This document shows positions 23,765-41,301 of a DNA stretch of 64,000 nucleotides, in pieces. The notes beneath the pieces were generated by a model, which was not told the origin of the DNA, searched no databases, and was given only the letters and a program-made list of their open reading frames with translations. The translations under genes were made by a program, and so were the position numbers. Position 1 is the first letter of the stretch, and every line of letters begins with the position of its first letter. Source of the DNA: Acidovorax sp. (GTDB lineage: Bacteria > Pseudomonadota > Gammaproteobacteria > Burkholderiales > Burkholderiaceae_C); NCBI RefSeq assembly GCF_046294525.1, contig NZ_JBKBKQ010000001.1, positions 231,263-295,262 of the forward strand. The letters are read 5' to 3'.

Positions 23765-24841
23765 ATGCCTTTTGACCGCAGCCAACCCCACAACGACCTG
23801 CCCCTGCTGCCGCCCGCAGTAGAGCTGGAGAGCAAGGCTGTGCTCAAGCAGGCGATTGCGGCCAACCGGGTGCTGGCCAACCTGCGCGGGCTGGCGGCGC
23901 AGATTCCGAACCAGGGCGTGCTGATCAACAGCATCGTGCTGCAGGAAGCGCGCTTGTCGTCGGAAATTGAAAACATCGTCACCACCAACGACGAGCTGTA
24001 TCGCGCCGACGCGGACGCTGACGGCAAGGCCGATGCCCATACCAAGGAGGTGTTGCGCTACCGCGAGGCGCTCTACCACGGCTTTGCCGCGCTGAAAGAC
24101 CGCCCTTTGAGCACCAATCTGTTCATAGAGATAGCCCAGCGCATCAAGCAGATGGATTTGCAGGTGCGCGCCGTGCCCGGCACGGCTTTGAAGAATGAGC
24201 GGGGCGAGGTGGTGTACACGCCGCCTGTGGGCGATGCGGTGATTCGCGACAAGCTGTCCAACCTTGAAAAGTTCATCCACGCCGATGACGACCTCGACCC
24301 GCTGGTAAAGATGGCGGTCATGCACTACCAGTTCGAGGCGATTCACCCGTTCCCGGATGGCAACGGCCGCACGGGGCGCATCCTGAACCTGCTGTTTCTG
24401 GTGGAAAAGGGCTTGCTGGACATTCCGGTGATGTTCCTGTCGCGCTACATCATTGCCCACCGTGCGGCCTACTACGAGGGTTTGCGCCGGGTGACGGAAG
24501 AGCAGGACTGGGAGAACTGGCTGCTTTACATGCTGCGTGCGGTGGAAAGCACGGCTCAGCAGACGTTTGATCAGGTCAACCGCATCCGTGACTTGATGGA
24601 GCAGGTGCGCGAGCGTGTGCAGCGCGAAGCGCCTGGCGTGTACAGCAAAGACCTGATCGAGGTGATCTTCAAGCAGCCCTATACAAAAATCCAGTTCGTG
24701 GTGGACGCTGGCATTGCCAAACGGCAAACCGCGTCCGGTTACCTGCAAACCCTGGCGGGCCTGGGCGTGCTGCGCGAAAGCAAGCACGGGCGCGAGAAGT
24801 ACTACATCAACGACGCCTTGTTGGCAGAGCTGGTGGGTTGA
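23765..24841 (+). CDS. fic: Fic/Doc-family protein (AMPylation-type Fic)
   Basis: Canonical Fic motif HPFPDGNGRTGR, sitting between hsdS and hsdR, which is a well-known association. Confidence 0.85.
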   Translation: MPFDRSQPHNDLPLLPPAVELESKAVLKQAIAANRVLANLRGLAAQIPNQGVLINSIVLQEARLSSEIENIVTTNDELYRADADADGKADAHTKEVLRYREALYHGFAALKDRPLSTNLFIEIAQRIKQMDLQVRAVPGTALKNERGEVVYTPPVGDAVIRDKLSNLEKFIHADDDLDPLVKMAVMHYQFEAIHPFPDGNGRTGRILNLLFLVEKGLLDIPVMFLSRYIIAHRAAYYEGLRRVTEEQDWENWLLYMLRAVESTAQQTFDQVNRIRDLMEQVRERVQREAPGVYSKDLIEVIFKQPYTKIQFVVDAGIAKRQTASGYLQTLAGLGVLRESKHGREKYYINDALLAELVG

Positions 24842-24921
24842 CCATATGGTGATGGCATCGACAGATCACGATAACTTGTCGATTTTCTTTGTTTTTTTAA
24901 ACATATTCTCCCCATCTGTCG

Positions 24922-27900
24922 ATGGCATCGACACATCCGCCACCTCTCAGCCCCGGACCTGACCGCATGACCGAAGACCAGCTCGAACGCGAAACCCTGG
25001 CCTGGCTGCAGGACGTGGGCTACACCCACATCGCCGGTCCCGACATCGCCCCCGACGGCCCCGCGCCCGAGCGCAGCGACTACCGCCAGGTGCTGCTGGC
25101 AGGCCGCCTGAAGGCAGCGCTGATGCGGCTGAACCCTGCCGTGCCCGTGGTGGCCATCGACGACGCGCTGGCGCAGGTGCAAGACCTGGGCGTGCCCGCG
25201 CTGCTGGCGGCCAACCGACGGTTTCACCGGCTGCTGGTGGCGGGCGTGCCGGTGCAGTACCAGCGCGGCAACGAGACAGTGGGCGACTTCGTGCGCCTGG
25301 TGGACTGGGCTGCGCCCGAGCGCAATGAGTGGCTGGCGGTGAACCAGTTCAGCGTGCGCGGGCCGCGCCACACGCGCCGGCCCGACGTGGTGCTGTTTGT
25401 GAACGGCCTGCCGCTGGTGCTGCTGGAGTTAAAAAACCCCGCCGACCAGGCCGCCAGTGTGTGGAAGGCGTACGACCAGATCCAGACGTACAAAGAGCAG
25501 ATCCCGGACCTGTTTAACACCAACGAGGTGCTGGTGATTTCAGACGGCACCGAGGCACTGCTGGGGTCGCTGAGCGCAAGCGCCGAGCGCTTCATGGCGT
25601 GGCGCACGATTGACGGCGTGGCGCTGGACCCGCTGGGCCAGTTCAACGAGCTGCAGACACTGGTGCGCGGCGTGCTGGCGCCGCAATACCTGCTGGACTA
25701 CCTGCGCTACTTTGTGCTGTTTGAGGACGATGGGCAGCTGGTCAAAAAGATCGCGGGCTACCACCAGTTTCATGCGGTACGCGCCGCCATTGCGCAGGTG
25801 GTGGCTGCTGCCACGCCGGGCAGCGGCGCAGACCCGGCCATCAAGGGCAAGGGCGGCGTGGTGTGGCACACGCAGGGCAGCGGCAAGAGCATCACCATGA
25901 CCTGCTTTGCCGCCCGCGTGATGCAGGAGCCCGCGCTGCAGAACCCCACCATCGTGGTCATCACCGACCGCAACGACCTGGACGGCCAGCTGCTGGGCGT
26001 GTTTGGCCTGGCGCAAGACCTGCTGCGCGAGCAGCCCGTGCAGGCCCGCACCCGGCAAGAGCTGCGCACGCTGCTGGCCAACCGCCCCTCGGGCGGCATT
26101 GTGTTTGCCACCATCCAGAAGTTCATGCCCAGCGAGGACGAAGACAGCTACCCCATGCTGTCGGACCGCCACAACATCGTGGTGATTGCCGACGAGGCGC
26201 ACCGCACGCAGTACGGGTTTGAGGCGCGACTGAAGGTGCGCAAGGCTGATGTGAAGGCCGATGGGAAGGAAGATTTCAAGCCAAATCAGGCTATAGCGCT
26301 TGATACACAAGCGTCACCAGCTACAAATAATGTAGCAAACCCCATCGCCACAGGCAGCGGCACCGCCCCCGCACACCGCGCCGAATTTGCGCCGCCCACC
26401 TACCGGGCAGGCACCGAAGCGAACACAGTGGAACACGCCCGCGAGCATTACCAGGTGGGCTACGCCCAGCACCTGCGCGATGCTCTGCCCAACGCCACCT
26501 TTGTGGCGTTTACCGGCACCCCGGTGAGCGGCACCGACCGCGACACGCGCGCCGTGTTTGGCGACTACATCCACGTGTATGACATGCAGCAGGCCAAGGA
26601 AGACGGCGCCACCGTGGCCATCTACTACGAAAGCCGCATGGTGAAGCTGGGCCTGAAGGCCGACGAGCTGCCCAGCATTGACGCCGAGGTGGACGAGCTG
26701 GCCGAGGACGAAGAAGAAAGCGTGCAGTCGCGCCTGAAAAGCCGCTGGGCGGCGCTGGAGCAGGTGGTGGGCGCCGAGCCCCGCGTGGCGCGCGTGGCGC
26801 AGGACCTGGTGGCGCATTTTGAAGAGCGCAACACCGCCCAGCTCGGCAAGGCCATGGTGGTGGCCATGAGCCGCGACATCTGCGCGCACCTGTACAACGA
26901 GATCGTGCGCCTGCGCCCCGACTGGCACAACGCCGACCCCGAGCTGGGCGCCATCAAGATCGTGATGACCGGCAGCGCCAGCGACAAAGCGCTGCTGCGC
27001 CCGCACATCTACAGCGCGCAGGTGAAAAAGCGGCTGGAAAAGCGCTTCAAAGACCCGGCCGACCCGCTGCGCATCGTGATCGTGCGCGACATGTGGCTGA
27101 CCGGCTTTGACGCGCCCTGCGTACACACCCTGTATGTAGACAAGCCCATGAAGGGCCATAACCTGATGCAGGCCATTGCCCGCGTGAACCGCGTGTTCAA
27201 GGACAAGCAGGGTGGCCTGGTGGTGGACTACATCGGCATTGGCAACGAGCTGAAAGCCGCCATGAAGGAATACACCGCCGCCCAAGGCCGGGGCCGCCCC
27301 ACGGTGGACGCGCACGAGGCCTTCAGCGTGGTGCTGGAAAAGCTGGATGTGCTGCGCGCCCTGCTGCACGGGTTTGACTACAGCGGCTTTCTGACGGGCG
27401 GCCACCGCGTGCTGGCGGGTGCTGCCAACCACGTGCTGGGCCTGCCGCGCCAGGCCGGGCAAGACGGCAAAAAACGGTTTGCCGACACTGCCCTGGCGAT
27501 GAGCCAGGCCTTTACCCTGAGCTGCACACTGGACGAGGCGAAGGGCGTGCGCGAGGAAGTGGCCTTCATGCAAGGCGTCAAGGTCATCCTGACCAAGCGC
27601 GACATCACCGCCAAGCAACGCACCGACGAGCAGCGCGAGCTGGCAGTGCGCCAGATCATCAGCCATGCAGTGGTGTCTGAAAGTGTGGTGGACATCTTTG
27701 ACGCCGTGGGGTTGGAGAAGCCCAACATCGGCCTGCTGGACGAAGGCTTTCTGGCCCAGGTGCGGGCGCTGCCCGAACGCAACCTGGCGGTGGAGTTGCT
27801 GGAGCGACTGCTGGAGGGCGAGATCAAGAGCCGCTTTGCCAGCAACGTGGTGCAAAGCAAAAAGTTCTCGGAGCTGCTGGGCGGCGTGATCGTGCGCTAC

Positions 27901-28296
27901 CAGAACCGCAGCATTGAAACCGCCCAGGTGATGGAAGAACTGCTGGACATGGCCCGCCAATTCCGCGAGGCACATGGTCTGGCCGACAAGCTGGGGCTGA
28001 GCGAAGACGAGGTGCGCTTTTACACCGCGCTGGCCGAGAACGAATCTGCCGTACGCACGCTGAGCGACGACACGCTGAAAAAAATCGCCCACGAACTGAC
28101 CGACAACCTGCGCAAAAACCTGACGGTGGACTGGACCGAGCGCGAGAGCGTGCAAGCCAAGCTGCGCCTGATGGTCAAACGCATCTTGCGCAAGTACAAA
28201 TACCCGCCGGACCTGGAAGCTGCAGCGGTGGAGCTTGTGCTGCAACAAGCGCAGGCATTGGGTGAAGAGTGGAGCGAGCTGGCTGCAGCGGTCTGA
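24922..28296 (+). CDS. hsdR: Type I R-M endonuclease/helicase subunit HsdR
   Basis: SF2 helicase motifs (GSGKS, DEAHRTQ, FTGTP); the start may be the second Met at 24967; it contains an unusually long low-GC insertion between DEAH and the FTGTP motif. Confidence 0.9.
26281..26340 (+). repeat. degenerate in-frame copy C of the ~55-60 bp palindromic repeat inside hsdR
   Basis: CAAATCAGGCTATAGCGCTTGATACACAAGCGTCACCAGCTACAAATAATGTAGC aligns with copy B; there is a local GC dip. Confidence 0.45.
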
Positions 28297-28378
28297 ACAA
28301 ACCGACACAAAAAACACCCTCTGTCGTTTGCCACACACCACGCTTGCAATTGGTGACAAACGAACACATTGACATGAT

Positions 28379-28882
28379 ATGTCGATGCACCTATTCTCCC
28401 GATCCATGCAGGCACACGGACTTTCTCCCGGCCGCCTGCCCCACCCGCACGACGAAGGAGACGCCGTGGCCACTTTGCTGGAACAACTCAACAACCTGGA
28501 CGTGCTGACTTCGGCACTCATGGGCGGTGTGGCGGTGCAGTTGCAGCCGATTGCGGGCGATGTGCCCGTGGTGCAGGTCAGCATTGAGGGGCGCGATGAG
28601 CTGCCCATCTTCGTGACCTGCTCGGACATGCAGATGATCTGCCTGTGCTACCTGTGGACCGATGCCGATGTGCGGCCCGAGCGCCGGGCCGAACTGATGG
28701 AGGCGCTGCTGGACCTGAACCCTTCCGTGCCCCTGTCGGCCTTTGGCCGCGTGGATGGCCGCTTTGTGCTGGTGGGCGCCCTGGCCCGCGCAGCGCGTGC
28801 TGAAGACGTGGCGCACGAGGTGGCCGTGCTCAGCGACAACGCGCTGGATGCGCTGGATGCGCTGGCGGAATTCCTGCATTGA
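28379..28882 (+). CDS. YjfI-like (DUF2170) or YbjN-type chaperone-like protein
   Basis: 167 aa, acidic, lying immediately upstream of a PspA-family gene as in the enterobacterial yjfI-yjfJ arrangement; the family assignment is from memory. Confidence 0.45.
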   Translation: MSMHLFSRSMQAHGLSPGRLPHPHDEGDAVATLLEQLNNLDVLTSALMGGVAVQLQPIAGDVPVVQVSIEGRDELPIFVTCSDMQMICLCYLWTDADVRPERRAELMEALLDLNPSVPLSAFGRVDGRFVLVGALARAARAEDVAHEVAVLSDNALDALDALAEFLH

Positions 28883-28961
28883 ACAGGCGCCCCGTCATCC
28901 CCGCTTCTTCCTCTTCACACCGTTTCGGTCCCGCAATTTTCGACATTGACAGGAGAACACC

Positions 28962-29723
28962 ATGTCGGTCATCAAGAAACTCGTCACCCTGCTGCGCGGC
29001 AGCGCCCGCGAACTGGGCCAGAGCGTGGTCGATGGCAACGCCACGCGCATTTATGAACAAGAGATCATCGACGCCAAGGCCAGCATCGCCGAAGCGAAGA
29101 CCGAACTCACCGGTGTGATGGCCAAACAGATGCAGACGGCGCGCGACATCGAGCGCATCAAGGGCGACATGCTGCGCCACGAAGACATGGCCGTGCAGGC
29201 GCTGGACAAGGCTAACGAAGGCCTGGCGCTGGAAGTGGCCGAGCGCGTGGCCGGCCTGGAGGCCGAGCTGAACGAGCAGACGCAGGCCCACGCCAGCTAT
29301 GCGATGCAGGTGTCGCGCCTGAAGGACCTGATCCGCAGCGCGGAAGGCCGTGTGCGAGAGCACGAGCGCGAGATCGGCATTGCCAAGACCACCGAGAGCG
29401 TGTACCGCGCCACGCAGAGCATCTCTGAAAGCATCGGCGCCACGGGTTCGCAGCTGACCAGCGCGCGCGATTCGCTGGAGCGCATCAAGAAGCGCCACGA
29501 AGACCTGGCCGACCGCATGGCCGCCGCCGAGCAGCTGGACCAGGAGTTCGGCCACCGCGCGCTGGAGCGCAAGCTGGCAGACGCGGGCATTGGCGACAGC
29601 GACAAGGTGCGTGCCGCCAAGGTGATGGAGCGCCTGCGCGCCCGCCAGGCCGGGGCTGCCGCTGCAACCACCGCCGCCGCCCCCCACGCGCTGCCCTCCC
29701 CCACGCCCACACAGGCCCCATGA
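28962..29723 (+). CDS. PspA/IM30 (ESCRT-III-like) family protein, YjfJ-like
   Basis: 253 aa, all coiled-coil, with a PspA-like N-terminus (MSVIKKLVTLLRGSARELGQSVVD) and an Ala/Pro-rich tail. Confidence 0.8.
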   Translation: MSVIKKLVTLLRGSARELGQSVVDGNATRIYEQEIIDAKASIAEAKTELTGVMAKQMQTARDIERIKGDMLRHEDMAVQALDKANEGLALEVAERVAGLEAELNEQTQAHASYAMQVSRLKDLIRSAEGRVREHEREIGIAKTTESVYRATQSISESIGATGSQLTSARDSLERIKKRHEDLADRMAAAEQLDQEFGHRALERKLADAGIGDSDKVRAAKVMERLRARQAGAAAATTAAAPHALPSPTPTQAP

Positions 29724-30097
29724 GCCCCGCACCGCGCAAGCCCGCGCGGTGGCAGGGCTCCGAGCCCGCTCTGCGCGCCGTCCAGGTGGCGTTTGACGTG
29801 GAAGAAGCCGTGATGGAGGCCATCCGCGTGGCGGCTTTCCATGCCAACGTGTCCACCTCCACGCAGATCCGCAGCGTACTGGACTTGCCCGTGGCGGCCC
29901 GGCCCAAGCGGCCGCGCCTGACGGTGACGCTGGACGCAGCCGACTACGAGTTGCTGGCGCAGCGCTACGGCCTCACACCGGAAGACCGCCTGGGCATCAA
30001 GGAGGCGGCCACGCGCGAGCTGATTGCTTTTGTGCAGCAGCCACCGCGCGCGGCCCGGGCGGGCACCGGCGGCGGCAAGAAGAAAAACAGTCGATAA
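29720..30097 (+). CDS. hypothetical protein with two ribbon-helix-helix-like repeats
   Basis: 125 aa; a beta-alpha-alpha pattern is repeated twice (LRAVQVAFDVEEAVMEAIRV..., RLTVTLDAADYELLAQRYGL...); ATGA overlap with the PspA-like gene. Confidence 0.35.
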   Translation: MSPAPRKPARWQGSEPALRAVQVAFDVEEAVMEAIRVAAFHANVSTSTQIRSVLDLPVAARPKRPRLTVTLDAADYELLAQRYGLTPEDRLGIKEAATRELIAFVQQPPRAARAGTGGGKKKNSR

Positions 30098-30197
30098 AAA
30101 ATTAAGAGAACCGCTTCACAAACAAGACATAAAAAGCGGTTCCCGGTGTCTTCGGTTCACAAACCAACACACAACACAACGAGGGGGGATTTGATTC

Positions 30198-30842
30198 ATG
30201 TTTGCCAGTCTTCTTGGGGCGGTCTCCGCGTTCCCGACCGCCATCTACACCGTGCTGTTGGGCGTGGTGCTGGTGTATTGGCTGATGGCCATGCTGGGCA
30301 TGGTGGACTTCGAGTCCAGCGGCATCGACGTGGCGATTGACGCCCACGCCGACGCCAGCGTGGACGACCTGGGCACCATTGCCAGCTATGTGGTGGCCTT
30401 CGGCCTGCACGGGGTGCCGTTCTCCATTGTGGTGAGCCTGCTGGTGCTGGTGGGATGGACGCTGTCCTTCCTGGCCGGCGTCACGCTGCTGGCCTGGGTG
30501 CCCACCGACATCCTGCGCTGGGCAGCTGGCGCCGTGGTGCTGGTGGTGACTGCGGCGCTGTCGGTGGTGATCACGGCGCGCATCGTGCGGCCGCTGCGCG
30601 GGCTGTTTGTGCACCACACGGCGCAAAGCAATGCCTCGCTGGTGGGCCAGACCTGCAAGGTGCTGACCGGCGTGGTGGACGAGCGCCAGGGCCGTGCCGA
30701 AGTGGCCCAGCGCGGCGCCAGCATCAACATCCGCGTGTGGTCGCCCAGCCCCAACACCTTGAAGCGCGGCGACGCCGCGCTGATCACCGAATACGACCCG
30801 GGCAGCCACCGCTACCTGGTTGTGCCGCTGCCACCCGCGTGA
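30198..30842 (+). CDS. YqiJ/NfeD-like inner membrane protein (DUF1449-like), flotillin partner
   Basis: 214 aa with N-terminal TM helices and a C-terminal OB-like soluble domain, directly upstream of the flotillin gene as in yqiJ-yqiK. Confidence 0.6.
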   Translation: MFASLLGAVSAFPTAIYTVLLGVVLVYWLMAMLGMVDFESSGIDVAIDAHADASVDDLGTIASYVVAFGLHGVPFSIVVSLLVLVGWTLSFLAGVTLLAWVPTDILRWAAGAVVLVVTAALSVVITARIVRPLRGLFVHHTAQSNASLVGQTCKVLTGVVDERQGRAEVAQRGASINIRVWSPSPNTLKRGDAALITEYDPGSHRYLVVPLPPA

Positions 30843-30937
30843 TGTGGCGCCCCACGGGGCGTCCGCCGGGCCAGGCTCCGTCGTTTTTCCAAGTTTCCTT
30901 TTCTCTCTCCACCCTTTCACCAGAAAGCGTACTTCTC

Positions 30938-33064
30938 ATGCCGCAATCCTTCATGGTCATCCTGATTGCCGTTGGCATCTTTGTCTTCCTGATCCTGGCG
31001 ATGTTCGCCATGTTCGCGAAGTTCTACCGGAAGGTGGAGCAAGGCCACGCGCTCATCATCAACACCCTGCGCTCCGAGCCCGAAGTCACCTTCACCGGCC
31101 GCATGGTCTACCCCATCATCCACAAGGCCGAGCTGATGGACATCTCGGTCAAGACCATCGAGATCGACCGCTCGGGCGACCAGGGCCTGATCTGCGCGGA
31201 CAACATCCGCGCCGACATCAAGGTGAAGTTCTTCGTGCGGGTGAACAAGACGGCCGAGGACGTGCTGCGCGTGGCGCAAGGCATTGGCTGTGCGCGCGCG
31301 TCCAACCACGAGATTCTGGAAGACCTGTTCTCGGCCAAGTTCTCCGAGGCGCTCAAGACCGTGGGCAAGTCGCTCGACTTCGTGGACCTGTACCAGGCGC
31401 GCGATGCCTTCCGCGACAAGATCATCGAGCAGATCGGCGACGACCTGTCGGGCTATGTGCTGGAAGACGCGGCGATTGACTACCTGGAGCAGACGCCGCT
31501 GTCCAAGCTTGATGCCAACAACATCCTCGACGCGCAGGGCATCAAGAAGATCACCCAACTCACTGCAGTGGAACACGTGGTGACCAATGAGCTGCGCCGC
31601 AACGAGGAAATGCAGATCAAGAAGAAGAACGTGGAAACGCAGGAAGCCCTGCTGGAGCTGGAGCGCCAACAGGCCGACGCCACCGCCCGCCAGGCGCGCG
31701 AAGTGGCCAGCGTGAAGGCGCGCGAAGAAGCCGAAACCGCCAAGGTGCGTGCCGAAGAACACACACGCGCCGAGATGGCGCGCCTGCAGTCCGAACAGTT
31801 GCTGGCCGTGCAGAACGAGAACGTGTTGCGCGAGAAGGAAGTGGCCGAGAACAACCGCAAGCGTGCGGTGGTGATCGAGCAGGAGCGCGTGACCCGCGCG
31901 CAAGACCTGGAAGTGGTGGCGCGCGAGAAGGAAGTGACGCTGCAACGCATTGAAAAAGACAAGGCGGTGGAGGTACAGAAGAAGGCCATTGCCGACGTGG
32001 TGCGCGAACGCATCGTGGTCGAACGCACGGTGGCCGAGCAGGAAGAAGCCATCAAGGAAGTGCGCGAAGTGGCCGAGGCCGACCGCACCCGCAAGGCCGT
32101 AGTCATCGGCGCCGAAGCAGCTGCCGAAGAAAAGGTGATCCTGGAAGTGAAGGCTGCTGAAGCCCAGGAACGCAAGGCGCGCCACAAGGCCGCCGAAGAC
32201 CTGGTGCTGGCCGACGCCCGTCTGAAGGTGGCCGAGCGCGAGGCCGAAGCCAAGAAGCGCGAAGCCGAAGGCATTGAAGCCCTGACCGCCGCGCCCGGCC
32301 TGGCCGATGCCAAGGTGCAGATGGCCAGCGCCAGCGCCAAACTGGCCACCATGGAAGCCGAAGCCAGCGGCAAGGAAAAAATTGGCCGTGCCGAAGCCCA
32401 GGTGACCGAAGCCCAGGCACATGCCGACGCCGTGGGCCTGCGCGCCCGCATGGAAGCTGAAGCCGCCGGCAAGGAAAAGGTCGGCCAGGCCGAAGCCTTG
32501 GTGCGCACCGTGGACGCCGAAGCCCTGGCCAAGATGGGCGACGCCGAAGCGCACAACATCGACGTGAAGTTCAACGCCGAGGCGCGCGGCCTGAAGGAAA
32601 AGTTCGAGGCCATGAAAGCCATGAGCACCGAAACGCGCGAGCACGAGGAGTACCGCATGCGCCTGGAGCGCGCGCACCTCGAAACCCTGAAGCAGATCGA
32701 GGCGCAGCAGCACATCGCCAAGGAACAGGCCGAAGTGCTGGGCGTGGCGCTGAAGAACGCGCGCATCGACATCGTGGGCGGCCAGGGCGACTACTTCGAC
32801 AGCTTTGTGCGTGCGCTGTCCGTTGGCAAGGGCATCGACGCGGCCGTGAACAAAAGCGACACGCTGCAGGTGGCCTTCAAAGACCAGCTCAGCGGCGAGC
32901 GCGACGTGGTGGAAGACGTGAAACAGATCCTGGGCGCTGCAGGCCAGTCGGCAGGCGAGCTGCAGAACCTGAGCGTCTCGGCCCTCATCGCACGGGTGAT
33001 GCAGACCGGCACCGACAGCCAGAAGCAGGCCTTGCAGCAACTGGCACAGAGCTTTCGCAAGTAA
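30938..33064 (+). CDS. flotillin-family protein (SPFH/band 7 domain, YqiK-like) with a long coiled-coil extension
   Basis: N-terminal TM segment then an SPFH domain (...PIIHKAELMDISVKTIEIDRSG...ICADNIRADIKVKFFVRV...), followed by ~450 aa of E/A/K-rich coiled coil; 708 aa. Confidence 0.85.
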   Translation: MPQSFMVILIAVGIFVFLILAMFAMFAKFYRKVEQGHALIINTLRSEPEVTFTGRMVYPIIHKAELMDISVKTIEIDRSGDQGLICADNIRADIKVKFFVRVNKTAEDVLRVAQGIGCARASNHEILEDLFSAKFSEALKTVGKSLDFVDLYQARDAFRDKIIEQIGDDLSGYVLEDAAIDYLEQTPLSKLDANNILDAQGIKKITQLTAVEHVVTNELRRNEEMQIKKKNVETQEALLELERQQADATARQAREVASVKAREEAETAKVRAEEHTRAEMARLQSEQLLAVQNENVLREKEVAENNRKRAVVIEQERVTRAQDLEVVAREKEVTLQRIEKDKAVEVQKKAIADVVRERIVVERTVAEQEEAIKEVREVAEADRTRKAVVIGAEAAAEEKVILEVKAAEAQERKARHKAAEDLVLADARLKVAEREAEAKKREAEGIEALTAAPGLADAKVQMASASAKLATMEAEASGKEKIGRAEAQVTEAQAHADAVGLRARMEAEAAGKEKVGQAEALVRTVDAEALAKMGDAEAHNIDVKFNAEARGLKEKFEAMKAMSTETREHEEYRMRLERAHLETLKQIEAQQHIAKEQAEVLGVALKNARIDIVGGQGDYFDSFVRALSVGKGIDAAVNKSDTLQVAFKDQLSGERDVVEDVKQILGAAGQSAGELQNLSVSALIARVMQTGTDSQKQALQQLAQSFRK

Positions 33065-33175
33065 GCAAAAACCATAGCATCTGGCGCTTGGTGCACAAGG
33101 GCTTCAGATGTTTTTCATTTGAAACCCAATGAAATCAAGCGCCAAAAGCTCTCATTTTCATAGCACAACACAGCC

Positions 33176-33751
33176 ATGACCCCACGCTTGCATTGCAGCT
33201 GCACCCTGCGCTCCGTGCTTAAAAACGTGGCGCTGGACGAAGGCCTTCCCGCACTGGCCTGTCCCGACTGCGGCGCCGTGCTGCTGAAGATGGACGACTG
33301 GCGCCGCTGGCGCAGCCGCTCGCCTGCGGCAGTGGCGCTCGGTGTTTCCGTAGCCGCTGATGCCGTCTCTGCCGACCCAGGCCGTGCGCGCGCCTGCCCG
33401 GCCTGCACACGGCTCATGGAACGCCTGCCCTTGGACGCCGCCGGTGCCCTGCGCCTGGACCGTTGCAGCACTTGCCAGACGGTGTGGCTGGACCCGGGCG
33501 AATGGCAGGCCCTGGTGGAGCGTGGCCTGGCGTCACAGCTGGACGCTCAGATGTCGGACGGCGGTCAACGCCGCCTGCAGGCCGAACGTCTGCATGCAAG
33601 CCGCATTCAGGCTTTGCGCCAACGCCACGGCGACGCTTGCATGGACGAAGTGCTGCGCATCCGCCGCTGGCTGGCCGAACAGCCGCGCCGTGACGAAGTG
33701 CTGGCGCTGTTGCAGGCGCCCGAAGCGGCAGCGCCCTCACAAAGAAACTGA
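33176..33751 (+). CDS. zinc-ribbon domain protein (hypothetical)
   Basis: 191 aa with two Cys clusters (CPDCG...CPAC...CSTC); GC-rich coding. Confidence 0.45.
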   Translation: MTPRLHCSCTLRSVLKNVALDEGLPALACPDCGAVLLKMDDWRRWRSRSPAAVALGVSVAADAVSADPGRARACPACTRLMERLPLDAAGALRLDRCSTCQTVWLDPGEWQALVERGLASQLDAQMSDGGQRRLQAERLHASRIQALRQRHGDACMDEVLRIRRWLAEQPRRDEVLALLQAPEAAAPSQRN

Positions 33752-33817
33752 AATAAGACGACGGGCAACGCATATCAACGCTCTCGCGTCTGCCTTAAAT
33801 TTGAACTGGATAGCTGC

Positions 33818-35227
33818 ATGACCTACAAATCCACCTGGCAATTGCCCGGCCATAACCCGCCAATGCTTGTCCAGCTTTCCATCGTTCCCTATGGCGCCAA
33901 CGGCACAGCTTCTTTCCGAATCTCAAGCTGCGTACTTAAAAAGGACCCGAGTCCCACCATTTTTCCCGGCGGCGAGGTGCTTCAGCTGACGCAGCCGGAC
34001 GGCGACCGAATCGTTGTGCAGAAGTATCTGGACTGGATTGCAGCCAACCCTGGGGTAATTCCGCGGTTCGACAACAACAACGGTCTTTTCCCTGAGTACT
34101 TCTTGGAGCCACAAGGTCGGCGCAAGACAGCCACTGAACTCCTGCTCGACGAAGCCATGTTGCGAGTGGAGCTGGGAGACTACGAGATTGCCCAGACCCT
34201 TCTCAACTCCATCGTTGAGCCTTCAGACTGCATGTTTCACCACACCGTGCTGCGCCGTCTTTATGCCAACTGGGCCACCGACGCTGCTGGCGCACCGGCA
34301 CAAGTGCATGCACAACGGGCAGTGCACCATGCAGAAGTCATCGTTGACATCTATCGCAAGATGGAGTCGGTGCATGAATACCCTGACAGATATGTTTGCT
34401 ACTACTTCGGTGACTACAGCACCGCCGGCTCTCAAGTCTCCAGCGCATGCGCGACCTTGGTGAGACATCGGTTACAGCAGCGGCAATTCCAAGCTGCGCT
34501 GGAAATCGCCGCATACGGAATCGCCGCAAATCGCTGGGACAGCGACTTGCGTGAACTGCAGATTCGCGCCCTGATGGCTATGGGCCGCAATGAGGAGGTT
34601 TGGCCGATATACGCCCTAAATCATCGCGGTATCGGCCCCATGCCGGAGGTAACCGAAACGGAAGGCTATCGCGCCTACATACGCGCGCAGTCTGAAGAAG
34701 CGCAGACCCAAGAGAAAAAGCGCCGCGCCAGCGTCGTCTTGCGCTATCACGATAGCCCTCTCCTCACCGACACAGAGCAGGCTGCATGGAAGGCACGGTA
34801 TCTGAATCTGCCGCAGAACTTTCTGTCCTGGGTCTCCAGCGGCCAGCGTACGCATCTGAAGGGCAGCGTGGAAACGGACGAGTACGAATACCGTCTGTTC
34901 AACCTGCAACAAAGCCAAGAATGGCACACCGACTTCATGGGGTGGCTCAATCTGCACGCAAAAAGCAGCCCAGACTTTCATGCGGAGATTTGGCAACACA
35001 TCCACGCAAGCGGCATTGATCCCGAACGCATGACTCCCATCCTAGGTGATACACACACGCCAGATGGCTTTCTGGTGCGATGCGACGGCGGGCCCGGAGA
35101 GTATGGCGCCGTCTACTTCTGGAGCCATGAGGAACTGCCAGTGTTCGAAAAAATCGCTGACAGCGCCCAAGACCTAATGCCGTGGCTTGCGACCGCAATA
35201 AGAGAAGGCAAGCCATTCATTTTGTAA
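33818..35227 (+). CDS. hypothetical protein with C-terminal SUKH-1 (SMI1/KNR4) immunity-like domain
   Basis: 469 aa; the C-terminal ~130 aa carry the SUKH-1 hallmarks LPQNFLSWV ... DGGPGEYGAVYFWSHEELPVFEKIADSAQDLMPWL; the gene is markedly lower in GC than its flanks. Confidence 0.5.
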   Translation: MTYKSTWQLPGHNPPMLVQLSIVPYGANGTASFRISSCVLKKDPSPTIFPGGEVLQLTQPDGDRIVVQKYLDWIAANPGVIPRFDNNNGLFPEYFLEPQGRRKTATELLLDEAMLRVELGDYEIAQTLLNSIVEPSDCMFHHTVLRRLYANWATDAAGAPAQVHAQRAVHHAEVIVDIYRKMESVHEYPDRYVCYYFGDYSTAGSQVSSACATLVRHRLQQRQFQAALEIAAYGIAANRWDSDLRELQIRALMAMGRNEEVWPIYALNHRGIGPMPEVTETEGYRAYIRAQSEEAQTQEKKRRASVVLRYHDSPLLTDTEQAAWKARYLNLPQNFLSWVSSGQRTHLKGSVETDEYEYRLFNLQQSQEWHTDFMGWLNLHAKSSPDFHAEIWQHIHASGIDPERMTPILGDTHTPDGFLVRCDGGPGEYGAVYFWSHEELPVFEKIADSAQDLMPWLATAIREGKPFIL

Positions 35228-35313
35228 CCGCCTTGCTTCTCAATGCATGCAAATTTGATAGCGCGTAGCGCTCATTGGATTAACGCCACAGCGACTTTTA
35301 ACAAAATTCCGCC

Positions 35314-38300
35314 ATGACCTCCATGTCCGAAACGCACGATGACGCCATCGACACCAGCGTGGCCGAAAGCAGCAGCTATGAGTTGCTGAAGAAACGCCTG
35401 GAAGCCCAGGGCGACACGCTGTTGTCCAAAGCACAGGCGCTCAACGCGGCGCGCATTGGCCAGTTCGGCCAGCGCGACCAGCAACTGCTGATGCGTTTGC
35501 GTGCGCGCACCGAGCACAGCTGCGTGGCGCGTGACCTGGCCTACATCGGCGGCAACCGGCTGCTGTTTGGCTACAACGTGTTCATGGGCCTCAAGCGCGA
35601 AACGCGGGTGGAGGACGTTTTCGCGCTGTACGAGTTGGCGCACCACGATGCGACCCGTGAAGAAGCGGGCGCTCCCGACAGCGACGAGCTGGTGCAGGTG
35701 CCGATGGCGGGCGGCTTTCTGGACGACCCACGTTTTGTGGCCGACTTCAACGAGCTCTACACCTACTACAAGCAGGCCACGCTGCAGTTGCTGCGCCCCA
35801 CGCCCGAATTTTTGTTGGCCGCGTTTCAGATCGGCCAGCAGGCGCAGGACATTCGAGTGTTTCGCTGGCGGCGTGAAAGCGATGGCTCGCTGAAGTACGT
35901 GGACAACCGCGGCGAGCGCGACCTGGCGCCGCCGCCCAGCCACGATTTCAGCTGGACGCCGCTGACACGCGAACACCATGTGGGCGGCGCGCACCCGCAC
36001 ATCAATGTGCTGGACACCATCTTTGTGGAAACCACCGGTGGCACGCTGACGGTGAAGGTGGAGAACAACACCGAGTCTGGCCTGGGCATCTACGATGAGC
36101 CCGTGGAAGACGCCAACCAGGCGCTGGGCGATGCCGAGTTTGCCTACGCCAAGCTGGGCCTGTTGATCCTGCTGCAGGTGCGCCCCTACCGCGAGAGCAC
36201 CACGCGCTACCTGGTGTTCAACCAGCGCACGCGGCAGGTGGTGCGCATCGACGCCATTGGCGCATCGTGCATGCAGCTGCCGGAGGACCACGGCATCATC
36301 TTCCCCGGCGGGTACTACCTGCAGTCGGGCGAGACCAAGCGCTTTGACCTGCCGCCCGAGCTGACCGAGCAGCTGCGCTATACGCGCATGAAGCGCTCGC
36401 CGAACGGGGAAGACGTGGCCTACATCTTCTACGGCACGGTGCCCCCGCCGCAGGGCAGCCCGGCCACGCTGGATGCGGGCTGCTATGCCATCTTCACCTA
36501 CAACCTCATCGACAAGTCGCTCGCGCCGCCCGTCCTGGCCGATGGGTACAGCACCTTCCCGGACGGGCGCATGCTGGTGTTCCAGGCCGCGCGCGGCGAG
36601 GCCGCGCGCGTACACCCTATGCAGCTGTGGCGCACACCCTTTGCCACCGAGGAACACGCCAGCCGCCAGCCCGCCGGCACGGGCTTCTTTGGCCGCGTGG
36701 GCAATGCCGACCTGGTGCGCGGCATCTCGGACCTGCTGGGCATTGCCCGCATGGTGCGCGAGCAGGTGCCCACGCGCACTGCGTACGAAGACCTGATACG
36801 CCAGTGCCAGCGCGCACGCGACGCCTACTTCTGGCTGGACGCCGGCGAGGTGCAGAACGCTGCGGCTGACCTGTCGGCCATCGAGCAGGCCGCGCAGGCC
36901 ACGCTGGGCGAGTTTGAAAAGGTTGAGAGCATCCGCCAGGACACGGCCCGCGCATTGCACAAGGCCGAAGGCCAGCAGCGCGAGCTGATGACCGCCATTG
37001 CCAGCCAGATGTGGCGCAGCCCCAGCGACTTTGTGCAGGCGCTCAACCGCCTGCGCCAGCGCCAGGGCGAGCTGCACCTGCTGCGCGAGCTGCGCTATGC
37101 CGACCTGGCCGCCGTGGATGCCATGGCCGCGCAGCTCACGGCCGAGCAGCAGCGCGTGGGCGAACGCGCGCTGCAGTTCCTGTCCGACGAAAAAGCCTTT
37201 GACGGCCAGCGCCAGGCCCTGACCAAGGTGGCCACCACCCTGCCCCAGGCCGCCACCGCCGCGCAACTGGCCGAGCAGTTGGACACGCTGGACGCCGAAG
37301 CCGCCAGCCTGGACCTGCTAAGCGAACAACTGGGCAACCTGCCCGGCGGCGATGCCGTGCAGCGCACCACCATCCTCGACCGCATTGCGCTGCTGTACGC
37401 TGACATCAACCGCCTGCGCGCCGATGCCCGCGCGCGCCGCCGCAACCTGGGTGCGGCCGAGCAGCGGGCGGAGTTTGGCGCGCAGTTCAAGCTGTTCGGC
37501 CAGGCCGTGGAAAACGCGCTGGAGCTGTCGGACACGCCCGAAAAGTGCGACGAGGCGCTGACCCGCCTGCTGGCGCAGCTGGAAGACATCGAAGGCCGCT
37601 TTGCCGAGCAGGAAGAGTTTCTGGCCGACATCGCCACCCAGCGCGAAAGCGTGTACGAGGCCCTGTCGGCCCGTCGCCAAAGCCTGGTGGATGCACAGCA
37701 GCGCCGCGCCAAGGCCCTGGCCGATGCGGCCGGGCGCGTGCTGGACGGCGTGCCGCGCCGCATTGCCGGCTTTGGCGAGCTGGCCCAGGTGCACAGCTAC
37801 TTCGCGTCCGACCCCATGCTGACCAAGCTGCGCGAGCAGGTGGCCGAGCTGCGCCGCCTGGGCGCGGCCGTGGCGGCCGACGACATCGACACGCGCCTGA
37901 AGACCGCCCGCGACCAGGCCGTGCGCGCGGTGCGCGACCAGCGGGAGCTCTCGGCCGGCGCCGAGGGCGGCCTGAAGCTGGGCAGCCACACCTTCACCAT
38001 CAACAAGCAGCCGCTAGACCTGACCCTCGTCGCCCACGGCAATGGACTGGCCTGGCAGATCACCGGCACCGACTACCTGGCCCCGGCGCACGACGCGCGG
38101 CTGCAGGTGCTGCGCCCCTTCTGGCAGCAGGCCCTGGTGTCGGAGACGCCGCAGTTGGCACGCGCCGAATACCTGGCCGCCGAATGGCTGGAAGCCCAGC
38201 AGCGCGGCGAGGCCGAGCCCGGCTGGAGCGAGCTGCTGGTGCAGCTGGCCGAGCATGCGCGCACGGATGGCATCGATGGCACCGAGCCCACCACCCCGCC

Positions 38301-40944
38301 CGCCGTGCTGCTCGATTCACTACGCCGCTTTGCCGCCAGCCGCTATCAAGAGGGCTACCAGCGCGGCATCCACGACGACGACGCCCTGGCCATCGTGCGC
38401 GTGCTCGCGCCCATCCAGGATGCGGCCGGGCTGCTGGTCTATGGCCCATCCGAGCGCGCGCTGGCCAAGCTCTACTGGCACCTGGGCCTGCGCGAGGAGA
38501 GCCGCAACTCCCTGGCCCGCCGCGCTCGCAGCGCCCAGCACATCGCGCAGCTGTTTTCACAGACCACGCTGCGGGACACGCTGGAGGCCGAGGCTGCGCA
38601 GGGTCTGCGCCAGTTTGTGGAGCAGCACCCCGTGCTGGCCGATGAGTGGCTGCCGGAGCTGGCCCAAGCACTGGGAACCGACAGCGCGGAAGGCGGGAGC
38701 GACGAGGCTTTGCTGCGCACGCTTGTGGAAGAAGCCAGCGCCTACCTGGTGCGCGAGCTGGCCCACACCGACATCGGAACGGCCGAGCTGGCCTCCGTCA
38801 CGCCGCAATGGGTGATCAGCAACACGGGCGCGGACCTGGTGCAGGCCCTGCAGCGCGCGCTGGACCATGGGGGCCTGGCCAGCGCCTGGCAGCGCGACCT
38901 GGCGGCCGCCGAGCCGCTGGAGCGCTGGCGCCTCGCGCGCGGCTGGCTGCGCGCGTTTGCCGCATCGCAGGCGGATGCCGACGGTGCCACGCCAGCCCTC
39001 GCCTGGATTGACGATGCCGCCACGGCGCTCACCTTCCAGGGTACGCGCCGCCGCATCAACGCCACGCTGGACGCGCAGGTGGCCGGGCTGCGCAGCGAGC
39101 ACATGCGCATCCAGCACGGCGCGCTGGCGTTCAACCTCAACGACTTTCGCCGGCGCGTGCGCCATCACCGCAGCCACGCGGTGCGCGGCTTTTTGCAGTT
39201 GCAGGCCCTGCGGCACGAGCTGCTGGTGCAAGAAAAAGCGCGCCTGCACCTGGCCCAGTTCCAGGCCAAACCGCTGGCCACCTTTGTGCGCAACCGGCTC
39301 ATCGACGAGGTGTACCTGCCGCTGGTGGGCAACAACCTGGCCAAGCAACTGGGCGCCGCAGGCGAGAGCGCACGCACCGACCGCATGGGCATGCTGCTGC
39401 TGATCTCGCCGCCCGGCTATGGCAAGACCACGCTGATGGAATATGTAGCCAACCGCTTGGGCCTGGTGTTTGTGCGCATCAACTGCCCGGCCCTGGGCCA
39501 TGGCGTGACCAGCATCGACCCCAGCACCGCGCCCAACAGCGCGGCGCGGCAAGAGCTGGAAAAGCTCAACCTGGGCCTGGCTATGGGCAGCAACGTGATG
39601 CTGTACCTGGACGATATCCAGCACACGCACCCCGAGTTTTTGCAGAAGTTCATCGCTCTGGCCGACGGCACCCGCCGCATTGAAGGCGTGTGGCAGGGCC
39701 AGCCCCGCACCTGGGACATGCGCGGCAAGCGCTTTGCCATCGTGATGGCGGGCAACCCGTACACCGAATCGGGCGACGTGTTCCGCATCCCCGACATGCT
39801 GGCCAACCGCGCCGACATCTACAACCTGGGCGACGTGCTCTCGGGCCGCGAGGCCGTGTTTGCGCTGTCGTACATCGAAAACAGCCTGACCGCCCACCCC
39901 GTGACCCAGCCCCTGGCCGCGCGCGAACCGCAGGACGTGCACGTGCTGGTGCGCATGGCCCAGGGCGAGGCCATCGACACCAGCAGCTTTGCCCACCCCT
40001 ACAGCGCGGTGGAGCTGCAGGAACTCAAGGGCCTGCTGCAGCGCCTGTTCAAAGTGCGCGACGTGCTGCTGAAGGTGAACCTGGCCTACATCGCCTCGGC
40101 CGCGCAGGACGACCGCTACCGCGAGGCGCCGCCCTTCCGCCTGCAAGGCAGCTACCGCAACATGGCGCGCCTGGCGCCGCAGGTCACGCCGCTGATGCAG
40201 GACGACGAGCTCGATGCGCTGCTGCGCGACCACTACCGCGGCGAGGCGCAGACTCTGACCACTGGCGCCGAAGAAAACTTGCTGCAGCTGGCGCAGCTGA
40301 TCGGCCGCCCCACGCCCCAGGAGCAAGAGCGCTGGGACCAGATCCGGGGCGACTACCAGCGCCAGCGCAAGATGGGCGGCGCCGAGGACGACCCGAGCGT
40401 GCGCGTGACGCGTGGGCTGCTGGACATTGCCCGCAGCGTGGAAGCCCTGCAGCCCCGCCAGGCCACCGAGCAGCTCACGCAGCAGATCGCAAAGCCGTTG
40501 GCCGCTATTGCGCAGCAGCTGGCCCAGCCCTCGCCCGCGCAGCAGGCCCAGGCCGCGGCGTTGGACCGCATCGAACCCGCGCTGAACGCCCTGGCGGAGC
40601 TGGCCCAGCACCTGCAAAAGGGCACCACCCAGACCCAGGCGCAGATGCGCGCCAGCCTGGACGCCACGGCAGAGGCGCTGCTAGCCCTGCAGGCCAGCAC
40701 CCAGGTCCTGCACGCCCACAGCGACCAGGCCCAGAGCCAGCGCATGGTGGACGCACTGCTGTCGCTGTCGGTCACCTACCGCCAGCTCATCATGCCGCTG
40801 GTGCGGGCGGTGGAAAGCCGCGTGGGGGCCGACGCCAAGATGCACCAGGAGGTGGAACGACTGGAGGGCATGATCGACAACCTGCGCGAGGCTCCGCCAT
40901 CAAGGGAAGCGCCGCCACCAAAGAAGAAGCCCCATCAGACTTAG
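35314..40944 (+). CDS. giant (1876 aa) uncharacterised protein with C-terminal-proximal MoxR/midasin-like AAA+ ATPase module
   Basis: Walker A LLISPPGYGKTT, Walker B VMLYLDDIQH and sensor-1 IVMAGNPYTESGD at about residues 1370-1480; roughly 700 aa of coiled-coil-like Ala/Leu/Gln/Arg-rich sequence precede it, and an N-terminal ~500-aa globular region; the frame stays open across 5.6 kb of high-GC DNA. Confidence 0.8.
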   Translation: MTSMSETHDDAIDTSVAESSSYELLKKRLEAQGDTLLSKAQALNAARIGQFGQRDQQLLMRLRARTEHSCVARDLAYIGGNRLLFGYNVFMGLKRETRVEDVFALYELAHHDATREEAGAPDSDELVQVPMAGGFLDDPRFVADFNELYTYYKQATLQLLRPTPEFLLAAFQIGQQAQDIRVFRWRRESDGSLKYVDNRGERDLAPPPSHDFSWTPLTREHHVGGAHPHINVLDTIFVETTGGTLTVKVENNTESGLGIYDEPVEDANQALGDAEFAYAKLGLLILLQVRPYRESTTRYLVFNQRTRQVVRIDAIGASCMQLPEDHGIIFPGGYYLQSGETKRFDLPPELTEQLRYTRMKRSPNGEDVAYIFYGTVPPPQGSPATLDAGCYAIFTYNLIDKSLAPPVLADGYSTFPDGRMLVFQAARGEAARVHPMQLWRTPFATEEHASRQPAGTGFFGRVGNADLVRGISDLLGIARMVREQVPTRTAYEDLIRQCQRARDAYFWLDAGEVQNAAADLSAIEQAAQATLGEFEKVESIRQDTARALHKAEGQQRELMTAIASQMWRSPSDFVQALNRLRQRQGELHLLRELRYADLAAVDAMAAQLTAEQQRVGERALQFLSDEKAFDGQRQALTKVATTLPQAATAAQLAEQLDTLDAEAASLDLLSEQLGNLPGGDAVQRTTILDRIALLYADINRLRADARARRRNLGAAEQRAEFGAQFKLFGQAVENALELSDTPEKCDEALTRLLAQLEDIEGRFAEQEEFLADIATQRESVYEALSARRQSLVDAQQRRAKALADAAGRVLDGVPRRIAGFGELAQVHSYFASDPMLTKLREQVAELRRLGAAVAADDIDTRLKTARDQAVRAVRDQRELSAGAEGGLKLGSHTFTINKQPLDLTLVAHGNGLAWQITGTDYLAPAHDARLQVLRPFWQQALVSETPQLARAEYLAAEWLEAQQRGEAEPGWSELLVQLAEHARTDGIDGTEPTTPPAVLLDSLRRFAASRYQEGYQRGIHDDDALAIVRVLAPIQDAAGLLVYGPSERALAKLYWHLGLREESRNSLARRARSAQHIAQLFSQTTLRDTLEAEAAQGLRQFVEQHPVLADEWLPELAQALGTDSAEGGSDEALLRTLVEEASAYLVRELAHTDIGTAELASVTPQWVISNTGADLVQALQRALDHGGLASAWQRDLAAAEPLERWRLARGWLRAFAASQADADGATPALAWIDDAATALTFQGTRRRINATLDAQVAGLRSEHMRIQHGALAFNLNDFRRRVRHHRSHAVRGFLQLQALRHELLVQEKARLHLAQFQAKPLATFVRNRLIDEVYLPLVGNNLAKQLGAAGESARTDRMGMLLLISPPGYGKTTLMEYVANRLGLVFVRINCPALGHGVTSIDPSTAPNSAARQELEKLNLGLAMGSNVMLYLDDIQHTHPEFLQKFIALADGTRRIEGVWQGQPRTWDMRGKRFAIVMAGNPYTESGDVFRIPDMLANRADIYNLGDVLSGREAVFALSYIENSLTAHPVTQPLAAREPQDVHVLVRMAQGEAIDTSSFAHPYSAVELQELKGLLQRLFKVRDVLLKVNLAYIASAAQDDRYREAPPFRLQGSYRNMARLAPQVTPLMQDDELDALLRDHYRGEAQTLTTGAEENLLQLAQLIGRPTPQEQERWDQIRGDYQRQRKMGGAEDDPSVRVTRGLLDIARSVEALQPRQATEQLTQQIAKPLAAIAQQLAQPSPAQQAQAAALDRIEPALNALAELAQHLQKGTTQTQAQMRASLDATAEALLALQASTQVLHAHSDQAQSQRMVDALLSLSVTYRQLIMPLVRAVESRVGADAKMHQEVERLEGMIDNLREAPPSREAPPPKKKPHQT

Positions 40945-40969
40945 GCGATGTCGTCGCGCACGGTTCTAC

Positions 40970-41185
40970 TTACTTCAGCCAGCTGCGCTTGGGCCGGGGC
41001 TGCACCGTGATATCCACCGCCTGGCGCACAGTGGGCTGGCCGCTGGCGGGGTCGGTGTCTACCACATCTTCCAGATCAATGTCCTTTACATCGGAGTCGG
41101 TGGACTCTTCCAGCTCTTCCAGAACGGCGTTGACCTTGCGTTCGGCCTGCTGGACTGCGGCCTCGGAAACAGGGGGGTTGCCCAT
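40970..41185 (-). CDS. small acidic hypothetical protein (71 aa)
   Basis: GC3-rich codon usage; convergent with the giant gene and 26 bp from its stop. Confidence 0.3.
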   Translation of the reverse strand: MGNPPVSEAAVQQAERKVNAVLEELEESTDSDVKDIDLEDVVDTDPASGQPTVRQAVDITVQPRPKRSWLK

Positions 41186-41301
41186 GGCGGTGGCTCCTCA
41201 GGTTGGCGGATATCCCCCATTCTTGCCGCAGTACAGCCTGTGCGCTGTCAGCCGATGCCGGCGGACAGGGGTAGGCGGCGGGCTCGCTCAGGCTCCCGCG
41301 T

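Follow-up and report, generated by a model that had tools for sequence, protein, structure and literature searches.

An Acidovorax orthologue of the bac membrane operon with a probable palindromic operator and its own ribbon-helix-helix-like gene

In Pseudomonas aeruginosa, the genes PA3732-PA3729 received the name bac (biofilm-associated cluster) in 2008 (PMC2587700). A mutant in PA3731, which encodes a PspA-like protein, shows defects in biofilm formation, swarming, rhamnolipid production and virulence; osmotic shock makes the PA3731 protein accumulate (PMC2587700). Work published in 2024 enlarged the cluster to bacA-F, six genes transcribed together, and determined the BacA structure (PMC10948618); the BacA family, DUF2170, has a CesT-like chaperone fold (PMC10948618, PMC11237479). 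Ravi et al. described in 2024 a class of operons joining CesT/Tir-PspA, three-transmembrane (3-TM) YqiJ/YuaF, Band-7/flotillin and beta-propeller/coiled-coil/AAA+ components, with a PLD gene in some Proteobacteria and with abbreviated flotillin-YqiJ-ATPase versions (PMC11237479). The locus treated here lies in a 64,000-nucleotide stretch of Acidovorax sp. DNA (contig NZ_JBKBKQ010000001.1, positions 231,263 to 295,262), called the window below. By sequence comparison, its segment at 28.37-40.94 kb is the Acidovorax-type (Comamonadaceae) orthologue of bacABCDE, without bacF and with three extra genes.

An earlier note, made from the letters of this DNA alone, had presented the locus as an arrangement not recognised before and as a candidate new system. 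The same arrangement is found in the operons of Ravi et al. (PMC11237479) and in the P. aeruginosa bac cluster, and the locus is a member of a known operon family rather than a new system. What is new in relation to the described class is the combination of a sigma-70-type promoter, a palindrome and a ribbon-helix-helix (RHH)-like gene. The family is widespread, with members in Proteobacteria, Bacteroidota, Actinomycetota and Deinococcota, and it couples three membrane-remodelling themes in one operon: an ESCRT-III-like PspA, a flotillin and a giant AAA+ enzyme.

Gene content and conservation of the operon

Eight co-oriented open reading frames (ORFs), here called genes A to H, occupy 28.38-40.94 kb with intergenic gaps of -4 to 111 nt (Table 1). 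The earlier note had counted ten co-oriented genes; its ORFs and coordinates are borne out, and the number becomes eight, plus one small convergent ORF. Its inventory is largely correct.

Conservation was followed in 80 loci, one genome per species, from Comamonadaceae, Rhodocyclaceae, Massilia and Moraxellaceae, in which tblastn searches with the window proteins scored the presence of each gene. Across this set the genes keep a fixed order, A-B-C-D-E-(F)-H. H occurs in all 80 loci, E in 77, D in 72 and A and B in 61 each, and a subset of loci carries D-E-(F)-H only. The locus is a real, conserved module that looks co-transcribed. The condition under which the earlier note would have counted as refuted, homologues that never co-localise, does not hold, the genes being tightly co-localised in other genomes. 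The Hymenobacter neighbourhood (locus L091) reads Tir chaperone-PspA-DUF1449-flotillin-like-"DNA repair ATPase", and a Streptomyces neighbourhood reads small protein-flotillin-ATPase. For P. aeruginosa, BacA was retrieved via the partial 8q8o sequence, rebuilt from its alignment, and the bac locus (L088) was then fetched; it reads DUF2170-PspA-213 aa-688 aa-1746 aa (DUF3686+DUF7902+AAA)-PLDc_2. Identity to the corresponding Bac proteins is 55% for E (over 648 aa), 45% for H (full length, 1871 aligned positions), 37% for B (5.8e-33), 34% for D and 26% for A (2.7e-7, tblastn).

Table 1. Features of the operon and of its surroundings, with positions in the window
Feature	Position	Strand	Description	Evidence or remark
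Gene A	28466..28882	+	DUF2170/YjfI (CesT/Tir-like), BacA homologue	Pfam DUF2170 2.2e-26
Gene B	28962..29723	+	PspA/IM30 family (YjfJ type), BacB homologue	Pfam PspA_IM30 5.1e-33
Gene C	29720..30097	+	125-aa tandem RHH-like protein	start overlaps B stop by 4 nt
Gene D	30198..30842	+	214-aa membrane protein at the YqiJ/NfeD position, BacC homologue	hydropathy, profile
Gene E	30938..33064	+	708-aa flotillin-like SPFH protein, BacD homologue	N-terminal transmembrane segment, long charged helical tail
Gene F	33176..33751	+	191-aa zinc-ribbon protein	Pfam Zn_ribbon_TFIIB 1.5e-6
Gene G	33818..35227	+	469-aa protein, TPR-like helical middle, weakly SUKH-like C-terminus	sub-threshold profiles
Gene H	35314..40944	+	1876-aa DUF3686+DUF7902+AAA+ protein, BacE homologue	Pfam DUF3686 4.5e-176
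Promoter	28369..28397	+	sigma-70-type, TTGACA-17 nt-TATTCT, upstream of A	10/12 positions match
Palindrome	28371..28383	.	GACATGATATGTC (GACAT-N3-ATGTC), operator candidate	overlaps -35 box
Convergent ORF	40970-41185	-	71-aa acidic ORF	Shine-Dalgarno GAGGAG
tRNA-Arg(CCT)	18914-18988			sole tRNA of the window
Type I restriction-modification system	18994-28296		HsdM, HsdS, HsdR	Pfam; block extends to 28342, directly after tRNA-Arg(CCT)

Gene A matches the PDB entry 8q8o, "DUF2170 family protein" (1.5e-5), E. coli YjfI (BLASTP 5.5e-8) and the NCBIfam BacA model (1.9e-10, under the model cutoff). Its start is probably the GTG at 28466, which would give 138 aa, instead of the ORF start at 28379, because a GAAGGAG Shine-Dalgarno sequence precedes it and the near-identical contig L081 carries a 138-aa call. 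After 79 nt follows gene B, whose product is 31% identical to E. coli YjfJ (BLASTP 1e-23, hhalign 99.3%) and matches PDB Vipp1/sll0617 at 5e-4; against the NCBIfam PspA equivalog it reaches 11 bits (cutoff 243). Pfam and NCBIfam give no PspB-, PspC- or PspF-type match of a classical Psp system among the nine ORFs of the region.

The product of gene D has three hydrophobic segments and, C-terminal to them, a soluble part, an architecture that fits the description of NfeD as three hydrophobic segments and a beta domain (PMC2636767). A profile of the D family finds BacC (1e-45), a 217-aa protein of pQBR103 (7e-43) and a Hymenobacter "DUF1449 family protein" (6.6e-30), and the last matches YqiJ at 2.6e-4 in a five-sequence database. 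Direct comparison of D with E. coli YqiJ was not significant (hhalign 0.3% probability); D has no Pfam match up to E 10, and a PDB profile search was empty. D is a membrane protein at the YqiJ/NfeD position; the YqiJ/NfeD-like label of the earlier note may or may not apply to its family, and similarity to E. coli YqiJ is not detectable. The transmembrane (TM) segment of E comprises residues 1-31. Neither E nor its homologues match Pfam Band_7 or Flot, and E has no PDB sequence match; its homology is shown via E. coli YqiK because the PDB search gave none (BLASTP 6e-38, 28% over 464 aa; hhalign 99.7%).

The giant protein H consists of an N-terminal DUF3686 region, DUF7902 (Pfam 1.4e-20), a long helical region, one AAA+ module and a helical/low-complexity tail. 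Its Walker A motif, GYGKT at residues 1368-1372, is invariant in the alignment, and its Walker B motif (LYLDDIQH) has Asp-Asp rather than Asp-Glu at residues 1433-1434, invariant in 12 aligned homologues. The Asp-Asp motif raises the question of whether H is a slow or regulated ATPase. Pfam places AAA_5 and AAA at about 4e-6 (best 3.3e-6); for AAA_5 the score is 27.6 bits (cutoff 22) across 126 profile positions, and for classical AAA it is equal. By sequence, Rix7 and Rpt3, both of the classical AAA+ clade, match best in PDB. A 12-sequence profile against PDB gave only matches in the P-loop region and was rejected as a means of assigning the clade; "MoxR/midasin-type", as the module had been called, is one of two equally weak assignments (AAA_5 and AAA), and no VWA protein is encoded in the operon (Pfam). 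Homologues of H number more than 4697 at E <1e-10 (90% clustering), under the NCBI name "DNA repair ATPase", and the DUF3686 N-terminal region alone yields 678 clusters at 50% identity. The closest come from Acidovorax and Xenophilus, and relatives at 40-48% identity occur in Deinococcus, Streptomyces, Nonomuraea, Hymenobacter, Vibrio, Proteus and pQBR103.

Directly upstream of H, 48 of the 80 loci carry F, which always occupies that position and is a frequent but optional accessory member. A likeness between the C-terminus of F and the N-terminus of BacE (BLASTP 1e-5 in a four-sequence database; 3.7 bits with an F-family profile) was taken as chance.

Promoter, palindrome and gene C

The promoter upstream of A is the sole promoter-like site within 28.2-41.4 kb. 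It lies inside a block that is syntenic with L012 and with L005 (Acidovorax sp. GW101-3H11, whose H is 94% identical to that of the window), hence outside the restriction-modification (R-M) insertion described below. When the region upstream of A is aligned across about 60 loci, almost nothing is conserved save TTGACAT-N3-ATGTC(G/A) and a TAnnnT box. A sigma-54 promoter for A was ruled out for want of a properly placed site: TGGCAC-N5-TTGCW, with up to two mismatches, does not occur between 28297 and 28465.

The palindrome is sharply confined. The motif GACATNNNATGTC has a single exact match in the window, and in a scan of the sequence of the 80 loci (1.70 Mb) it was matched exactly 82 times, in each case 33-128 bp upstream of where A is estimated to start and nowhere else. 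It stands upstream of A in 61/61 loci with A-B-C, in one to three copies that are spaced by 15 or 24 bp in most multi-copy loci, and in none of the loci that have only D-E-H.

Gene C is present in 61/61 loci having A and B and is highly conserved, with 36 invariant columns among 21 sequences. Two strand-helix-helix units, 'RAVQVAFDVEEAV..STSTQIRSVL' and 'KRPRLTVTLDAADYELLAQRYGL..', can be read from its sequence, and a single-sequence AlphaFold2 (AF2) model places such units at E21-26/H29-42/H48-54 and E66-71/H73-82/H90-106 (predicted local distance difference test, pLDDT, 64). By fold, the F-plasmid relaxosome chains of some 110 aa come out on top in PDB, a weak match (E 0.16, template-modelling score 0.40); these chains are TraY, a single-chain tandem RHH protein. 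Strand-helix-helix units of the RHH type read palindromic DNA. The palindrome is probably the operator of the operon-encoded C, and C probably represses its own operon by occluding the -35 box. The sigma-70-type promoter, sharp palindrome and own RHH-like gene of the operon in Burkholderiales and Rhodocyclales offer a handle for inducer studies.

P. aeruginosa BacA is 206 aa long in L088 and in the NCBIfam model and 146 aa long as crystallised (8q8o), and the additional 60 residues at the N-terminus resemble a strand plus a helix. Homology of C to this N-terminal extension was considered and rejected, hhalign finding no similarity. A direct repeat, TTACATGTGA, occurs twice just upstream of the long BacA ATG (L088 ~9940-10180). 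If the longer BacA reading frame is genuine, a fresh look may be due at the published sigma-54 site and at BacA's role as a regulator.

Insertions beside and within the operon

The Type I R-M system upstream of the operon carries, between hsdS and hsdR, a DUF3800 gene, an unknown 168-aa ORF and a Fic/SoFic-like gene. Neither an integrase nor flanking direct repeats of at least 9 nt were found for this block. In L005 and L012, the tRNA flank aligns to window position 19016 or 19096 and then jumps to 28343 or 28337, and the downstream EamA/AsnC/ApbA genes are syntenic with those of the window. Because the tRNA flank joins the operon directly in these two loci, the 9.3-kb R-M block is an independent insertion between the tRNA and a core operon that was already there, and it leaves the operon promoter intact. 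L012 carries a different 1.3-kb insert at the R-M site and L005 none, and the operon flanks are also conserved across Variovorax species. The operon had been placed inside a tRNA-linked island; that island (19.0-28.3 kb) ends before the operon promoter.

Gene G occupies an indel of about 1.6 kb (about 33709-35342), delimited against L003, L004 and L012, and its GC content at third codon positions (GC3) is 0.65 as against 0.76-0.90 in the other seven operon genes. Its profile matches are all sub-threshold (TPR_19 0.003, SMI1_KNR4 0.013), the latter scoring 16.5 bits against a cutoff of 25.4 over profile positions 17-122 of 125. SMI1_KNR4 is matched individually by all four members of the G family, at best 6e-4 and always below the curated cutoff. 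In an AF2 model built from a four-sequence alignment (pLDDT 53.6), only the helical middle is confident, and the SUKH-like C-terminus stays below 50. Three homologues were found among 5.8 billion proteins, 91, 60 and 63% identical. Where flanks exist, the homologues share one slot in Acidovorax-like contigs, immediately ahead of the giant gene and behind the zinc-ribbon or flotillin gene (L085 has no flanks). No toxin gene adjoins G: its neighbours are the zinc-ribbon and ATPase genes in the window, L081 and L082, and L084 has the flotillin gene upstream of it. G is absent from 80/80 related loci, and the SUKH-like gene does not stand as a component of the module, as the earlier note had it. 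G is best read as a lineage-specific foreign insertion, a probable hitch-hiker in the operon.

The slot ahead of the ATPase gene repeatedly acquires foreign genes. The flotillin-ATPase gap measures 16-215 bp in most loci without F and about 480-930 bp in most loci with F. Other cargo comprises an RHH+PIN toxin-antitoxin pair (L014 8300-9932; PIN 4.8e-11), a PD-(D/E)XK-like 181-aa gene (L002 4924-5469 and L007 9394-9939) and small TM or unknown ORFs (L005 9654-9965 and L032 9650-9898). In L013, a contig of a metagenome-assembled genome, 8.8 kb of other ORFs stand between a flotillin fragment and the ATPase gene, in a rearranged or broken operon.

The operon is a vertically inherited core locus, and the R-M island and gene G are two independent insertions. 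The apparent link to a defence island stems from these insertions and not from the operon itself.

Downstream of H, the convergent 71-aa ORF, a tentative gene, sits in an indel of about 400 bp (window 40899-41301). It was found in one of the 80 relatives, the closest (L001, 82%), and is absent from L005, L004, L012 and L081. The window is GC-rich (about 0.56-0.75 per 1-kb step), with a fall to 0.61-0.65 at 8-13 kb and a rise to 0.72-0.75 at 14-18 kb. An Rfam scan of 18-42 kb returned nothing beyond the tRNA.

Proposed mechanism, alternatives and comparison with described systems

The locus as a whole is best explained as a bac-type membrane operon orthologue in which H would remodel membrane assemblies and C would repress its own operon, an account that is considered likely. 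PspA proteins are membrane-repair polymers with an ESCRT-III fold, and B would polymerise on the stressed inner membrane, and the CesT-like DUF2170 protein A might serve B as chaperone or holdase. SPFH proteins scaffold membrane domains; flotillin E and its 3-TM partner D would position the system by forming a microdomain or dome in the membrane, much as SPFH proteins recruit PspA in B. subtilis and HflK/C cages FtsH. H might engage these assemblies through its N-terminal domain and long helical arm, and ATP hydrolysis by H would assemble, remodel or recycle PspA and/or flotillin assemblies in a Vps4-like manner. Transcription would proceed from the sigma-70-type promoter, whose -35 box lies within the palindrome, and C, translationally coupled to PspA, would bind the palindrome and autorepress the operon. 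By analogy, an ATP-driven remodeller acting on PspA and/or flotillin assemblies at the inner membrane is the most economical reading of H. FtsH, which SPFH assemblies cage, is itself an AAA+ enzyme, and ESCRT-III polymers have an AAA+ enzyme that recycles them. Interactions with the FtsH protease are described for multimers of YbbK/YbbJ and HflK/C (PMC2636767), and in B. subtilis an SPFH protein links PspA to the membrane (PMC8581546).

Several points weigh against this account. The proposed roles are analogies, and no biochemical function is known for homologues of H, D or F. With its Asp-Asp Walker B motif and unsettled AAA+ clade, H is at most predicted to be catalytically competent. The name "DNA repair ATPase" points elsewhere, and no evidence was found behind it. 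If H were what the name says, the operon would tie the membrane to DNA transactions instead of remodelling it, as the Pfam text for DUF3686 ("ATPase involved in DNA repair"), the NCBI name and weak P-loop matches of H to RuvB would have it; yet the RuvB matches span just ~45-70 residues near the P-loop, where Rix7, Rpt3 and CDC48 match equally well, every conserved neighbour of H is a membrane or PspA-type protein, and a literature search returned no paper mentioning DUF3686, PF12458 or DUF7902. The name is probably misleading, and a repair function is highly improbable. On the regulatory side, the RHH fold of C rests on a pLDDT-64 model and fold matches with E >0.1, and C has no significant match in Pfam or, profile search included, in PDB. 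A, B and C always co-occur, and with the palindrome as well, so that co-occurrence cannot assign its binder. In P. aeruginosa, the proposed negative regulator is BacA, whose disruption raises BacB-F 6- to 13-fold, and the operon has a proposed sigma-54 site (PMC10948618); neither a sigma-54 site of that type nor BacA-based control is seen in the window. The binder of the palindrome might be A, the DUF2170 protein, or else an unlinked regulator, with C in a role other than DNA binding. DUF2170 proteins have a CesT-like chaperone fold and no known DNA-binding activity, however, and A and B occur without C in the loci of P. aeruginosa, pQBR103 and Hymenobacter, the palindrome being absent from P. 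aeruginosa L088, the only one of the three scanned. The two predicted strand-helix-helix units of C are of the palindrome-reading type, and a binder other than C is rather unlikely.

A role in phage defence, abortive infection or membrane integrity, as a new system on a tRNA-linked defence island, was the proposal of the earlier note, and the operon does come directly after Type I R-M genes that are accompanied by Fic and DUF3800 genes. The flotillin-ATPase slot also holds conflict-type cargo, including the RHH+PIN pair, the PD-(D/E)XK-like genes and the SUKH-like gene of the window, and one copy of the operon resides on the megaplasmid pQBR103. Set against this, the R-M island is separate and missing from L005 and L012, hsdR adjoins the operon in just two of the 80 loci, and the operon flanks are syntenic within genera. 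PADLOC-DB v2 gave only marginal matches (E 0.001-0.008), to coiled-coil or P-loop parts of JetC, LmuB and IetA, no relatives of the giant protein were found on viral contigs in IMG/VR, and the published P. aeruginosa phenotypes are biofilm, motility, virulence and osmotic stress (PMC2587700). The defence proposal finds no support in this comparison and is very unlikely to be right. G, for its part, might have a function confined to its lineage, as an adaptor or regulator acting on the giant ATPase or the flotillin, rather than be a passive hitch-hiker or an orphan immunity gene of a polymorphic-toxin system. All its known homologues, even those at 60-63% identity, lie in the same slot where flanks are available, its ORF is intact in three lineages and has therefore been kept there for some time, and it is co-oriented with its neighbours, at gaps of 66 and 86 nt. 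Against such a role stand its absence from all the other loci, the 94%-identical L005 included, its deviating GC3, the copy in L084 that is apparently split into two ORFs, the unrelated cargo that the same slot takes in other lineages and the want of an adjoining toxin gene. An adaptor function for G is accordingly held to be unlikely, and the hitch-hiker reading is preferred.

A more speculative extension, considered rather improbable, would make the betaproteobacterial version a self-contained Psp-like circuit that dispenses with PspF and sigma-54 and includes an adaptor slot. Repression by C via GACATN3ATGTC would be released when PspA and the DUF2170 protein are drawn to damaged membrane, and the occupants of the slot, the zinc-ribbon protein and the SUKH/TPR protein G, might retarget or gate the giant ATPase.

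Among known systems, B. subtilis pspA-ydjGHI, HflK/C-FtsH and ESCRT-III-Vps4 resemble the operon in functional logic only. H has no sequence relationship to FtsH or Vps4 past the P-loop, and it carries no protease or MIT domain. Sequence relatives in E. coli are split between yjfIJ(KLMC) and yqiJK, with A corresponding to YjfI, B to YjfJ and E to YqiK, and with D lacking significant similarity to YqiJ. The two pairs are unlinked in E. coli, where the giant ATPase is missing and yjfIJ continues into polyamine-related genes.

The megaplasmid pQBR103 (L089, NC_009444.1 84437-97641) carries a polyamine-type, yjfIJKLMC-like PspA cluster to which a rhomboid-protease gene is added, with the D-like, SPFH and giant ATPase genes directly after it. 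This copy merges two operon classes that Ravi et al. kept separate.

The class described by Ravi et al. is closer. In their Table S3, the domain string of Dokdonia ANH61663.1 equals A-B-D-E-H of the window (PMC11237479), and the Hymenobacter locus shows the same string with a CesT_Tir_1 protein replacing DUF2170. Their abbreviated form, D-E-H, also occurs among the 80 loci (e.g., L029, L037, L044 and L064). Ravi et al. make no mention of a tandem-RHH gene, of a zinc-ribbon gene in this operon or of an operator (PMC11237479), and Bacteroidota versions carry a divergent LexA-like regulator instead.

The closest counterpart is P. aeruginosa bacABCDEF (PA3732-PA3727; PA14_16140-16200), whose families and gene order match A, B, D, E and H of the window. 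The bac operon ends in the PLD gene bacF, in place of which the window has the 71-aa ORF and a convergent EamA gene downstream of H. The two also differ in their control regions: bacA has a proposed sigma-54 site and no such palindrome in L088, whereas the window has a sigma-70-type promoter with GACATN3ATGTC. Beyond the bac set, the Acidovorax operon carries genes C, F and G.

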